Shown here one piece after another: positions 42,879 through 45,617 of a DNA stretch of 64,000 nt (the first letter of the stretch is position 1; the number at the start of each line of letters is the position of its first letter). Source of the DNA: an uncultured cyanobacterium (GTDB lineage: Bacteria; Cyanobacteriota; Cyanobacteriia; Phormidesmidales; Phormidesmidaceae); assembly GCA_963793265.1 (NCBI GenBank), contig CAWBZI010000002.1, forward strand, positions 128,001-192,000, given 5' to 3'. The notes under the pieces are model-generated. The model did not search any database, was not told where the DNA came from, and saw only the letters and a program-made list of their open reading frames with translations. A program made the translations under genes and the position numbers.

Positions 42879-44657
42879 CTATGCCAGCTTTCGCCAGGGT
42901 GCAAAGCCGTTGGTGAGTCCGTATAAAGCAGGTGAGAGTGCCGGATAGTGGCGGCGAAGAACGGTTAGAAAGCTGTTTTCTTCAATCCAATCTAGGCCAA
43001 ACTGGGTGTAGACGCTGGCTCGATAGTCTTTAGTAAAGAAGCGATCGCTCTTCAACCGTCTAGAGGCCATTAAAATAAAGACCCTGAACGCCGTATCGCT
43101 AAAGCCAAAGCCTTCCGGCAGATCCTCAGCAAATAGACCCACCATCAAGTCAACGCTGTTAATGTCGTTGTTATAGACTTCGCGCAGCTCCCTAGCCCAC
43201 GTCGGATTGCTGGTAAGCTCCTCAAAAGAAGACACGCTATCTTTGCCTATAATCTCTCGAAACCGATTGTAACGAGGCACGCCGCGCTCGCGATCTCGTA
43301 AAATATCTACTGCTGCTAAATCAAAAGCATCTTTTGCCCCATCTTTAACCAGCGCCCTTAGAAAATTAGGATAGTTATGCAGCGTAATCGCGCCAGGATG
43401 CTGAATGCCAAAGGAGTATAAAGCGTCTTCTATTGGCATAGACTGCATGATCTTGCGGGTGCGTTTGCCAAATACGCTTGGAAACTGTTTGCTCGTCAGG
43501 TGCTCGCCGCTGCGGTGCGCATAAAAGTCTATATCATCTGGAATGAGCGGATGCATTCTATACACAGAGACGAACTCTTCAGTGAGATAGTAAGGCGATC
43601 CGTGGTGATCGGTCGCAGAACCCACAATGCCGCTGAGTAGTTCGTCTTCACCCAGGTTGCCGGTCACGTTTTTAACGTCTCTGCCTAACACGCCCCACCA
43701 GTTGGCGTGCATCGCAATTTGAGTAGCGGGATTTGGCAAAATAGCGGGCGTCCATTCTACCGTATGAATTTTGGCGAGCAGGGCGGCAGTGATGAGCCTG
43801 GCCTTGTCGAATAGCTGCGTATCGTTCCAATCTGGGTAGCGCTGTTGCAGGCGATCGCATATCGCATTGTGTTCTTTAATAAACAACGTGTGCAACAAGC
43901 TCAGCCCCATCCACCAGCCGCCAGCCGACCCTGGAAAACCAACGTGATCGATCCCCTTCTCATCATCCAGCGGTAAAAACCCATCGTCTCCAATCAGCAT
44001 CTTTCCACCTTGATGGCTTCGCAATTTTTCTAGGGTGGCTTCGTCACTGCCATAGAGCTGCGAGGCATCCCACCAGTGCGTGACGCTGTTGATAAAAGTC
44101 GCAGGGCGCGTGTTGTTATCGGTGCGAGAAGGGTCTTTAAGCGTTTTAGGAACCTTTAGATCCTGATGCTCAGGATTTTGAGAATCTGGCTTGCTTTGGT
44201 GAGGCTGGCCCGGTGGAATAGAGAAATGATTGTCAGGCTGATTTTCGCCGTGGGTAAACCAGTCGTGGGTTTGAAACTGAATCCAGGCGGCTGCGTGAAG
44301 ATTGAGAATGGTCGCTGGAATAAAGTAATTACGCTTAAGCAGTACGCTGCTCACCAGTCGAGGATTGGGTTCAAGAATGTTTCTTTCGTCAACGTTGGCT
44401 TCTGCTAGGGGGCTATTGCGGCCAAATCGAGTGCCTGCCATGCCCATTTCTGGCTGCTCTAAATCGTTGAAGCTGCCGTCAGCCGTACGAGCAATCAGGT
44501 GCCGACCGTCTGGGCTAGGCTGAGGGGTGGGTAGCCTCTCCCTATCTAGCAGATGAGAGGTATCGCGAAGATTATTTTCTCGTAGCTTGTTGCGAAACTG
44601 AATAAGCTGTAACAAAGCTAGCGGCGTTGGTAGCTTGTGCCAAGGAATTTTAAACAT
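42879..44657 (-). CDS. Heme fatty-acid alpha-dioxygenase (peroxidase-cyclooxygenase superfamily)
   Basis: RTADG.FNDL, WIQFQTHDW, THWWDASQLYG, KIHTVEWT, LTEEFVSVYRMH (catalytic Tyr, proximal His), RDRERG, ASRRLKSDRFFT. Confidence 0.88.
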   Translation of the reverse strand: MFKIPWHKLPTPLALLQLIQFRNKLRENNLRDTSHLLDRERLPTPQPSPDGRHLIARTADGSFNDLEQPEMGMAGTRFGRNSPLAEANVDERNILEPNPRLVSSVLLKRNYFIPATILNLHAAAWIQFQTHDWFTHGENQPDNHFSIPPGQPHQSKPDSQNPEHQDLKVPKTLKDPSRTDNNTRPATFINSVTHWWDASQLYGSDEATLEKLRSHQGGKMLIGDDGFLPLDDEKGIDHVGFPGSAGGWWMGLSLLHTLFIKEHNAICDRLQQRYPDWNDTQLFDKARLITAALLAKIHTVEWTPAILPNPATQIAMHANWWGVLGRDVKNVTGNLGEDELLSGIVGSATDHHGSPYYLTEEFVSVYRMHPLIPDDIDFYAHRSGEHLTSKQFPSVFGKRTRKIMQSMPIEDALYSFGIQHPGAITLHNYPNFLRALVKDGAKDAFDLAAVDILRDRERGVPRYNRFREIIGKDSVSSFEELTSNPTWARELREVYNNDINSVDLMVGLFAEDLPEGFGFSDTAFRVFILMASRRLKSDRFFTKDYRASVYTQFGLDWIEENSFLTVLRRHYPALSPALYGLTNGFAPWRKLA

Positions 44658-44711
44658 GATAGATCCTCTTTTGTTTAAGTTTTAAAGGTGGAGGCTACAC
44701 TACTTTTATGG

Positions 44712-45617
44712 CTACGCTGCTTTTAAAGCTATTTGCAGATCTCTCATGAAGTTCAAGAAAAAGTCCTTAAAAACGCAGGCACGGTCTGAATCGCCAGTAC
44801 CGAAGGTAAACCAAATATTTTTCGTCTTGGCGGCTGCTTCGGCAACCTTAAAGATGATCACCGTCTTTCCTGGCGCGATCGGTGAAGCCAGCAGTCCATC
44901 AAGAGTTGAAGATCGCACGGCAATTCTAGGAACTTGAGCGGTGGGCGCAAATTCAGTAAAAATATCTTCGATCGGCCTGTCTACGTTTTCCTGCAATCTT
45001 CTAAGCGAGCCTGCGGTCGCCTGCACCACTTCTCCAATATTATGACCAACATCTAAAATGTGAACGCCTTTAGGCAAAGCATGTTCACAGTAGTTCATAA
45101 TCTGAGTTTGAGACTTAACGCCCTGAGCATAGTTGGGCGGCACTACTGCCCCTGTAAAGTCTTGTACCGTGTGCTTTGCAGCTTCGGCAATCTCAGTAGG
45201 AACAGCCCTGCCAAAGAATCTCTGATTGACAATTTGAACCATTTCATAAGCGAGCACGTCATCTGCTACGTTTGCTTTAAGCAAAGCGGCGATTTTTTGA
45301 ACGTCTGCTTGGCTGTAGCCTTCATTTGATTTTTCTTCTAAATAGGCTCTCCTCTGTGGGTAAGTCGGCTCAAAGGATGGCTCGAAAGGGCAAAACCAAA
45401 GGTCGCGATTCTTATCGTGAAACTTAGTTGATCGAAAGTAAACCTGCACCCACCAGGGAAGGTCTTGAGTGGGGTAAGCGTGCAGTCTATCAACATCCCC
45501 AGAAGCTTCAATGCGTCTGATTTGCTCTGGATCTGAAACTGTCACCAGATCGAGTAGAAAAGGAATGGTGAGCCTGGAGGGCTTTTTCGTAGGAGAAGCC
45601 ATATTTGCATTCGCCAT
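44712..45617 (-). CDS. Hypothetical protein with P450-like C-terminal Cys pocket
   Basis: PRIAVRSSTLDG...IAPGKTVII and FGTGDSDRAC resemble the P450 beta region and FxxGxRxC motif; about 300 aa; start uncertain. Confidence 0.55.
   Translation of the reverse strand: MANANMASPTKKPSRLTIPFLLDLVTVSDPEQIRRIEASGDVDRLHAYPTQDLPWWVQVYFRSTKFHDKNRDLWFCPFEPSFEPTYPQRRAYLEEKSNEGYSQADVQKIAALLKANVADDVLAYEMVQIVNQRFFGRAVPTEIAEAAKHTVQDFTGAVVPPNYAQGVKSQTQIMNYCEHALPKGVHILDVGHNIGEVVQATAGSLRRLQENVDRPIEDIFTEFAPTAQVPRIAVRSSTLDGLLASPIAPGKTVIIFKVAEAAAKTKNIWFTFGTGDSDRACVFKDFFLNFMRDLQIALKAA

Follow-up and report, generated by a model that had tools for sequence, protein, structure and literature searches.

A conserved bacterial gene pair of a fatty-acid alpha-dioxygenase and a miniature protein with a predicted P450 fold

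A fatty-acid alpha-dioxygenase (alpha-DOX) of an uncultured cyanobacterium of the Phormidesmidaceae is encoded next to a 301-residue protein of an unnamed family, for which a cut-down cytochrome P450 (CYP) fold is predicted, and the two genes are kept together, or are fused, in nearly all related loci that we found. The pair lies in a stretch of 64,000 nucleotides (nt) that was analysed as a whole and is referred to as the window (positions 128,001 to 192,000 of the forward strand of contig CAWBZI010000002.1, assembly GCA_963793265.1); all coordinates below are those of the window. We propose that the pair constitutes an oxylipin module, autonomous and probably bicistronic, in which a self-sufficient haem-thiolate partner acts on the hydroperoxide produced by the dioxygenase (DOX), and give this reading a probability of roughly 55%. 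Both open reading frames (ORFs) had been pointed out in a sequence-only reading of the window made without database searches, and they were confirmed on the minus strand together with a spacer of exactly 54 nt. The gene for the 301-residue protein is called the small gene in the following.

42879..44657, minus strand: fatty-acid alpha-dioxygenase gene, 592 residues, peroxidase-cyclooxygenase superfamily (ORF from ATG)
44658..44711, minus strand: 54-nt intergenic spacer between the small gene and the DOX gene (direct sequence reading)
44712..45617, minus strand: small gene, encoding the 301-residue protein of predicted miniature P450 fold (unnamed family, putative haem-thiolate enzyme; ORF from ATG)

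Conserved pairing and natural fusions

When 185,579 species-representative genomes were scanned for peptide patterns specific to the family, 52 loci emerged; the patterns were derived from close relatives, and the co-occurrence figure mainly describes the cyanobacterial branch. A DOX homologue is found beside the small gene in 50 of these 52 loci (tblastn with the DOX of the window against the fetched flanks, E<=1e-5). The small gene precedes the DOX gene on the same strand in 28 loci, which is the order of the window, and follows it on the same strand in 13, while the genes are divergent in eight loci and convergent in one (L042). In 46 of the 50 loci with a DOX homologue, 518 or more of the 592 query residues are matched (joined across three segments in L027), and in L024 the DOX match ends at the contig end. 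The pair is also kept in all four loci whose labels are other than cyanobacterial (Eisenbacteria, 'Bacillati ANGP1', Gemmatimonadales and Planctomycetaceae). In such deep lineages the DOX has diverged more than the small protein, with identities to the window proteins of 57% for the small protein and 32% for the DOX in L036, 47% and 30% in L050, and 58% and 44% in L035, suggesting that the small protein is a constrained enzyme rather than a relic.

The two proteins also occur as single polypeptides. A search limited to longer proteins gave four relatives among 4508 candidates, all of them fusions with PF03098 of 919-943 residues. In P0273 of Iningainema tapete (943 residues) the DOX occupies residues 96-623 and is followed by the small domain, and the counterpart of this protein in L038 is a single uninterrupted ORF of 948 residues. 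The other three, P0274, P0275 and P0276 (919-930 residues), begin with the small domain, which is 58% identical to the window protein over residues 10-297, and carry the DOX at approximately 376-912. The presence of fusions in both orders, together with the four gene arrangements, is strong evidence for a joint function of the two proteins, and the pairing of the small gene with the DOX gene is not due to chance. The sequence-only reading had suggested a two-gene pathway, an idea that is strongly backed by this adjacency and by the four fusion clusters, which parallel the fungal DOX-CYP fusions.

A few of the sequences depart from these patterns. In L045 (4229-4951, a metagenome-assembled genome (MAG) of the Microcoleaceae) and L046 (1046-1636, an Okeania MAG), the DOX match is confined to the C-terminal 200-240 residues although the contig continues; the small gene is intact with the DOX upstream of it, and the DOX may be truncated or interrupted. 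Among the loci with non-cyanobacterial labels, the longest DOX-holding ORFs of L050 (3134-5995), L036 (1627-4056), L052 (1384-3924, minus strand) and L035 (3634-6000) encode 788-953 residues, of which 220-416 residues without a Pfam match precede the peroxidase domain; these long N-termini may reflect over-extension of ORFs in GC-rich DNA or an extra N-terminal domain. In P0131 (684 residues), an N-terminal piece of the An_peroxidase domain at residues 337-431 is followed by the middle of the small-protein family at 452-634, which could reflect the rearrangement of a fusion, a frameshift in the gene call or an error of assembly.

The alpha-dioxygenase and its small partner

Judged by its sequence, the 592-residue protein is a true fatty-acid alpha-dioxygenase. 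It matches the Pfam family An_peroxidase (PF03098) at 1.7e-112 over residues 57-573, and the best matches among the sequences of the Protein Data Bank (PDB) are the alpha-DOXs of rice (4kvj_A, 2.2e-118) and Arabidopsis (4hhr_A, 1.4e-111), which align end to end, while the next protein family after these structures follows at 5.5e-30. The alpha-DOX call that had been made earlier from the tyrosine of the YRMH motif is thereby upheld.

43551..43562, minus strand: YRMH with catalytic Tyr366 and proximal haem ligand His369, rice Tyr379 and His382 (translation, alignment to the rice chain)

Counted along the 4kvj_A alignment, the rice residues H157, H311, T316, Y379, H382 and R559 correspond to H131, H298, T303, Y366, H369 and R534 of the window enzyme. 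According to excerpts of the literature, Y379 is the radical-bearing catalytic tyrosine of the rice protein and H157 and H382 are its distal and proximal haem ligands (Kim et al. 2021, PMC8720084), whereas H311 and R559 hold the substrate carboxylate and T316 positions the alpha carbon (PMC8720084). The carboxylate-binding His and Arg and the Thr, marks that separate alpha-DOXs from cyclooxygenases (COX) and linoleate diol synthases (LDS), are all present in the window DOX. All six residues are invariant in 28 of 28 partner sequences, an alignment composed of DOXs that adjoin the small gene, two of which are only 32-33% identical to the enzyme of the window. Alpha-DOX converts a fatty acid to its (R)-2-hydroperoxy derivative; this product spontaneously loses CO2 to give the Cn-1 aldehyde, and a 2-hydroxy acid is formed as well (PMC8720084).

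The 301-residue partner has no match in Pfam or NCBIfam, and phmmer against the PDB sequences returned nothing at E<=10. A word-indexed search with this protein found 234 homologues at E<=1e-3, and the 120 of these that were listed are 294-354 residues long, lack a Pfam domain and are termed 'hypothetical protein' wherever they are named. An exhaustive search gave 217 cluster representatives at E<=1e-3, including 51 at E<=1e-30, and tblastn of plasmid sequences with the small protein gave no match. The predicted structure is clearly that of a cut-down P450. An AlphaFold2 model built from a 46-row alignment reached a predicted local distance difference test (pLDDT) score of 87.8 and a predicted template-modelling (pTM) score of 0.85, and Foldseek returned at least 500 PDB matches for it at E<=1e-3. 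All 34 among the matches listed are cytochromes P450 with a probability of 1.00, a TM-score on query length of 0.44-0.62 and an identity of 10-14%; the listed alignments cover 342-429 columns, and the targets, with 346-470 residues, are all longer than the query. P0240, a family member only 14-24% identical to other members, was folded as a control for model dependence. Its model (pLDDT 79.5, pTM 0.81) gave 368 Foldseek matches at E<=1e-3, and all 44 among those listed are again P450s with a probability of 1.00, led by P450BioI and EryF. In a language-model search of the ESM Atlas, 18 of 30 matches were PF00067 clusters (best 0.95), preceded by three unnamed clusters of the small family's own kind (0.97). 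A fold prediction with AlphaFold and Foldseek had been proposed along with the sequence-only reading, with the lack of a P450 fold counting against it, and in silico both models favour a P450 fold. Prediction of a complex of the DOX, the small protein and two haems gave a median score of 0.39, while one unrelated-protein control reached 0.50, and it carries no weight for binding in either direction.

Canonical P450s are built in the order beta1, B, C to G, I, K, beta1-4, beta1-3, K', Cys pocket and L, and in the model the order of elements in the small protein is the canonical one. The N-terminal part of the model comprises strands 14-18 and 22-27, a short helix 30-39 with one strand, and seven helices within 55-180. 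The C-terminal part consists of helices 187-210 and 216-222, strands 229-233 and 253-256, short helices 258-265 and 268-271, the Cys loop and helix 284-300. By this topology the protein appears to have kept the N-terminal beta sheet, the helical bundle up to an I-like helix, the K helix, beta1-4, beta1-3, the Cys pocket and the L helix, and to have lost the ExxR arginine, the meander with the PERF segment, the J helices and everything beyond the L helix. Three short stretches of its gene are of particular relevance.

44769..44804, minus strand: Cys pocket FGTGDSDRACVF (F272-F283), with Cys281 as the proposed haem thiolate ligand (conservation, model)
44922..44969, minus strand: K-helix to beta1-4 stretch EDIFTEFAPTAQVPRI, with a degenerate ExxR (Arg replaced by F220) and conserved R231 (translation)
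45030..45053, minus strand: start of the I-helix-like helix, DVGHNIGE (D189-E196), with D189 and H192 as candidate distal residues (conservation; helix 187-210 in the model)

The C-terminal third was set by eye against a canonical P450 encoded in locus L021 (PF00067 at 1.2e-75). The counterparts of the canonical pattern ExxR...P......R...G..IPxGT are E217-D-I-F220, P225, R231, G241 and P249-G-K-T252-V, so that the K-helix position carries a Phe in place of the arginine, in agreement with the earlier remark that no clear ExxR was present. From V253 in strand beta1-3 to F272 there are only 19 residues, compared with about 40 in the L021 protein, and there is therefore no meander with the PERF arginine; likewise, the chain ends 20 residues past Cys281 and thus has no C-terminal sheets. 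The joint loss of both arginines of the Glu-Arg-Arg (ERR) triad and of the meander would amount to one coherent deletion. The motif FGTGDSDRAC occupies residues 272-281 of 301, in a loop right before the last long helix (284-300) of the model. The gene of about 300 codons had been described as ending in this motif; the length is right, at 301 residues, but the motif stands 20 residues short of the C-terminus. Set against the canonical Cys pocket FGxGxRxCxG (Oliw 2026, PMC13049297), the pocket F272-G-T-G275-DSD-R279-A-C281-V-F283 contains an insertion of two residues and a Phe in place of the final Gly.

In an alignment of 46 close relatives, 58 columns are invariant, including H186, D189, H192-N-I-G-E196, T221, R231, F272, G275, R279 and C281, and E217 is conserved to at least 90%. 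In a diverse set of 51 members, with identities down to 18%, R279 and C281 are the only invariant columns, and R15, R44, D189, H192, R231, G241, F272 and G275 are conserved to at least 90%. The stretch around D189 and H192 would lie over the haem. By helix-length arithmetic, residues 192-196 should face the iron if the iron-facing position lies about 15 residues before the end of the I helix, as in P450s, which is here residue 210. The conserved arginines occupy topological positions in the model at which P450s bind the haem propionates.

Proposed reaction, competing explanations and known systems

We hypothesize that the two proteins catalyse consecutive steps. His298 and Arg534 of the DOX would hold the fatty-acid carboxylate while the Tyr366 radical takes the C2 hydrogen, and the product would be the 2(R)-hydroperoxy fatty acid. 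The small protein would carry a haem via the Cys281 thiolate and work without a redox partner. Next, the labile 2-hydroperoxide would pass from the DOX to the small protein, where its O-O bond would be cleaved at the haem, for which CYP74, the prostacyclin and thromboxane synthases and the CYP domains of the fungal linoleate diol synthases serve as models. The partner would thus set the fate of the hydroperoxide in place of its spontaneous decay to Cn-1 aldehyde and CO2. In all known pairs of a fatty-acid DOX and a second haem protein, the partner rearranges or cleaves the peroxide without external electrons; examples are the fungal DOX-CYP fusions, COX with prostacyclin or thromboxane synthase, plant allene oxide synthase, and the Nostoc 10S-DOX with its separately encoded hydroperoxide lyase (PMC13049297). 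Cleavage of the O-O bond at a Cys281-bound haem is proposed because the Cys pocket is the sole invariant feature of the family, no redox partner recurs and the protein is found fused to the DOX; its haem binding, substrate and reaction we infer by analogy.

As a first guess, at a little under even odds, the partner diverts the hydroperoxide to another product, for instance a 2-oxo, hydroxy or epoxy acid. A lyase that speeds the release of aldehyde and CO2 is our second guess and a less probable one; diversion is ranked slightly above mere acceleration of aldehyde release because expression of the DOX by itself already gives aldehydes. At odds likewise somewhat below even, the small proteins could constitute a new and unusually small haem-thiolate class of P450 fold, about 300 residues in size, that lacks the ERR triad, the meander and the C-terminal sheets, escapes Pfam and is dedicated to the 2-hydroperoxides of alpha-DOX and makes an oxylipin other than the aldehyde.

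Several observations weigh against a haem-thiolate module. The link of the small family to the P450s is structural, with no demonstrable link at the level of sequence: PF00067 matches 0 of 21 family members even at E<=1, a family profile run against all PDB sequences found no P450, and hhalign gave a probability of 0.14 for this profile against the L021 P450 and of 0.20 when a broader profile of the family was compared with 21 aligned canonical P450s. The ERR triad stabilises the haem core in nearly all P450s. Its absence, the insertion in the Cys pocket and the Phe in place of the post-Cys Gly leave haem binding less than assured. The surviving core F..G...RxC would be an altered P450 Cys pocket, and the assignment of Cys281 as the proximal cysteine is drawn from motif and topology. 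The Asn that lies over the iron in plant allene oxide synthase (AOS), prostacyclin synthase (PGIS), LDS and epoxyalcohol synthase (EAS), and which is dispensable in several of them (PMC13049297), has a candidate counterpart in N193 of the I-like helix. This residue is invariant in the 46 close relatives but is not kept in the family at large. In E. coli, Cn-1 aldehydes are already formed by three cyanobacterial alpha-DOXs that were expressed on their own (PMC9305512), and hence the partner is not required for that product. Furthermore, two loci (L043 and L047) have no DOX in the flank and no An_peroxidase ORF there, and co-transcription in the window is deduced from gene spacing.

Some of these features would also suit a haem-free or catalytically inactive accessory of the DOX, that is, a relic of the P450 fold retained for stability, haem acquisition or membrane tethering. 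Such a role would accommodate the missing triad and meander and the altered pocket, and adjacency and fusion are expected of a structural partner as much as of an enzyme; in addition, the haem occupancy of recombinant cyanobacterial alpha-DOXs is reported to lie below that of the rice enzyme (PMC9305512). However, Arg279 and Cys281, the only invariants of the family, are located at the thiolate position of P450s, as catalysis or cofactor binding would predict and a scaffold would not, and in deep lineages the DOX is the more variable of the two proteins; we regard an inert accessory as unlikely. We think it similarly improbable that the protein is a conventional O2/NAD(P)H monooxygenase that is fed by a general ferredoxin and oxidises the fatty acid, the Cn-1 aldehyde or the 2-hydroxy acid, with hydroxylation or oxidative decarbonylation as examples of the reaction. 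The fold is that expected of such an enzyme, the fatty-acyl-cleaving P450BioI is among the top matches of the distant member P0240, and bacterial P450s often rely on ferredoxins encoded elsewhere in the genome. In contrast, no ferredoxin or reductase recurs in the flanks of the 52 loci (partners encoded elsewhere being possible), the fusions are with the dioxygenase and not with a reductase, the I-like helix has no recognisable acid-alcohol pair, and the P450s described in PMC13049297 as coupled to a fatty-acid dioxygenase are all self-sufficient.

A peroxidase or peroxygenase that detoxifies the 2-hydroperoxide to the 2-hydroxy acid, or that primes the tyrosyl radical of the DOX, would make use of the conserved Asp189 and His192 of the I-like helix as acid-base catalysts for heterolytic O-O cleavage, and 2-hydroxy acids are known side products of alpha-DOX (PMC8720084). 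Such an enzyme would need an external reductant, none of which is encoded nearby, and tight coupling with repeated fusion exceeds what is usual for a scavenger; we consider it about as improbable as the two preceding readings. Least probable is the wider picture behind the sequence-only reading, in which the pair would belong to the adjoining antifungal hydrolase operon and make an antifungal lipid from fatty acids supplied by lipases. The pair shares the strand of genes for a glycoside hydrolase (GH) family 19 chitinase with LysM, an astacin-like protease, a CAP/PR-1-like protein, and GH17 and GH64 glucanases and lies close to them, and plant alpha-DOX is pathogen-induced (PMC8720084). When 37 window proteins were run by tblastn against the 52 related loci, however, the GH19 chitinase-LysM, astacin-like, CAP-crystallin, GH17, GH64, GDSL-like and SBF genes were each found in 0 of 52, as were the caspase-linked genes, and even the closest relatives (L001-L004) lack antifungal and lipase matches. 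The DOX gene and the chitinase gene are also set apart by 695 nt that contain a stable hairpin. The antifungal hydrolase cluster and the lipases therefore neighbour the pair in this genome only and are outside the module, and neither the antifungal link nor the suggested supply of fatty acids by SGNH or caspase-linked lipases is supported.

The proposed haem-thiolate module resembles several known systems. In the fungal DOX-CYP fusions (linoleate diol synthases, 8/9-DOX-AOS and 10R-DOX-EAS), a DOX of the peroxidase-cyclooxygenase type is likewise coupled to a P450 fold (PMC13049297). The fungal proteins are coupled by fusion, whereas the window pair is coupled by adjacency and its relatives by adjacency or fusion; fusions of the P0273 type have the fungal order, with the DOX N-terminal and the P450 fold C-terminal, whereas bacterial fusions occur in both orders. 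The fungal enzymes are 8-, 9- and 10-DOXs of linoleate, whereas that of the window is of the alpha type and would act on C2 of a saturated or unsaturated acid. Also, the fungal partner is a full CYP domain, while the bacterial one has 300 residues, with neither a meander nor the ExxR arginine, and shows no detectable sequence similarity to P450s. The proposed mode of action, O-O cleavage at a thiolate haem without O2 or a reductase, would be shared with the AOS and hydroperoxide lyases of CYP74 and with CYP8A1 and CYP5A1 (PMC13049297), which are full-length proteins recognised by PF00067, in contrast to the small family. In Nostoc punctiforme, the hydroperoxide formed by the 10S-DOX, likewise a haem dioxygenase of a cyanobacterium, is processed by a separately encoded protein, as proposed here (PMC13049297). 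The partner there is a catalase-related hydroperoxide lyase with a tyrosinate haem, whereas the window partner has a predicted P450 fold and a conserved Cys. In the original study from 2014, the genes for the Nostoc 10S-DOX and the hydroperoxide lyase were reportedly neighbours. A catalase-related protein was considered as the window partner and rejected; the small protein matches nothing in Pfam, and there is no catalase among the listed Foldseek matches. The plant alpha-DOXs and the cyanobacterial CalDOX, LepDOX and CsDOX belong to the same family as the window DOX and share the catalytic Tyr, the haem His and the carboxylate His, Arg and Thr. In the excerpted sources they are described as stand-alone enzymes with a spontaneously decaying product, whereas the window DOX has a conserved partner.

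In the full-text literature that was searched, which leaves subscription journals mostly outside, there is no description of a conserved P450-like or other partner of a bacterial alpha-DOX or of a P450 fold this small. The excerpts of the 2021 CalDOX/LepDOX paper do not mention an operon, gene neighbours or a fusion, and those of the 2022 alpha-DOX review do not mention a P450, an operon, a gene cluster or neighbouring genes. The excerpted parts of the 2024 octadecanoid review and of the 2026 DOX-CYP review (PMC13049297) cover only the fungal DOX-CYP fusions and the catalase-related system of Nostoc. Pairs of a dioxygenase and a haem protein that converts its hydroperoxide are already known in principle, but neither the alpha-DOX context nor the miniature, Pfam-invisible family of predicted P450 fold is described in this literature.

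In plant biology and biocatalysis, alpha-DOX is treated as a single enzyme, with a hydroperoxide that breaks down to an aldehyde by itself. A conserved partner implies that the product, its rate of formation or its site of release is controlled in bacteria, and work with recombinant DOX by itself may miss the real chemistry. If the proposal is correct, bacterial alpha-DOXs are not stand-alone enzymes, and the combination of a DOX with a P450 that underlies the formation of prostanoids, jasmonates and fungal diols is widespread in prokaryotes in miniature form. The recurrent pairing seen for COX with PGIS or thromboxane synthase, lipoxygenase (LOX) with CYP74, fungal DOX with CYP and cyanobacterial DOX or LOX with catalase-related proteins would then extend to alpha-oxidation and to several bacterial phyla, and the bacterial pair may be an early or an independently evolved form of the DOX-P450 partnership. 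The partner would also be the smallest functional P450 fold so far and reveal which parts (the meander, the ERR triad and the C-terminal sheets) are dispensable, which would be of use for the study of P450 evolution and for protein design. The pair is directly testable, with two small soluble genes and ready-made natural fusions.

Transcription unit and genomic surroundings

The small gene and the DOX gene probably form a two-gene transcription unit, as suggested by their spacing. The small gene comes first on the minus strand and the DOX gene second, and the 54-nt spacer contains a Shine-Dalgarno-like AAGAGGA 8 nt 5' of the DOX ATG and, by consensus scan, no terminator-like site. An alternative TTG start at 45680 would add 21 residues to the small protein, but the N-termini of the family match the ATG instead. 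Two further elements flank the pair.

42804..42834, minus strand: stable hairpin, candidate terminator of the two-gene unit (RNA folding)
45669..45697, minus strand: promoter-like hexamers TTAACA, 17 nt, AAAAAT, located 5' of the small gene; tentative (consensus scan only)

The hairpin has a 13-bp stem and is located 44 nt 3' of the DOX stop codon; its folding energy is -17.1 kcal/mol (z = -4.19), and none of 200 shuffled sequences was equally stable. It is followed by about 620 nt of non-coding DNA up to the next gene. The hairpin is missing from the list of the consensus terminator scan, which gave two sites in the region compared with 3.7 in shuffled sequences, and the four promoter-like sites of the region compare with 4.1 expected from shuffles, so that neither count exceeds chance. 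A search of positions 42000-46200 against Rfam (E<=0.1) gave no matches.

Clustering of 412 ORFs from the 52 loci revealed no third recurrent gene. The commonest other neighbour is a 143-residue ORF without a Pfam match, present in eight loci (e.g. L008, 7099-7530) from Nostoc, Calothrix, Tolypothrix and Aulosira, which are of the heterocystous type, three Okeania and one Microcoleaceae MAG; next in frequency is a LuxR-type response regulator, in six loci. The histidine kinases and response regulators of the window gave domain-level matches only. In L021, the canonical P450 used for comparison (8883-10463, minus strand, 526 residues) is convergent to the DOX gene; by a search for the Cys-pocket motif, it is present in this one of the 52 loci.

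Directly upstream of the pair and on the same strand (45801-49155), a gene for a di-haem cytochrome c peroxidase of the MauG type (48085-49155) overlaps by 17 nt with one for a hybrid histidine kinase with a DAHL sensor domain (45801-48101). The two may form a peroxide-sensing unit, and apart from generic kinase-domain matches they do not recur with the pair. On the other side, five co-directional genes (36982-42183, minus strand) resemble a set of plant pathogenesis-related proteins and encode a GH64 beta-1,3-glucanase, a GH17 protein, a CAP/PR-1-like protein and an astacin-like metalloprotease, which contain a beta/gamma-crystallin and a crystallin domain, respectively, and a GH19 chitinase with LysM. 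Further away, a long run of conflict-system or 'immunity-like' genes (591-27870, plus strand) comprises CHAT-TPR, a caspase (C14) fragment, DUF7379, TIR-AAA_35-CHAT, three large STAND/WD40 proteins (two of them nSTAND1) and DUF1822, and a second DUF1822 is found with CHAT-CHASE2 and DUF928 at 55651-60035. A gene for a PETase-like alpha/beta hydrolase (28721-29824, minus strand) adjoins one for a 1016-residue protein with a TPS (two-partner-secretion) domain (29941-32991, plus strand).

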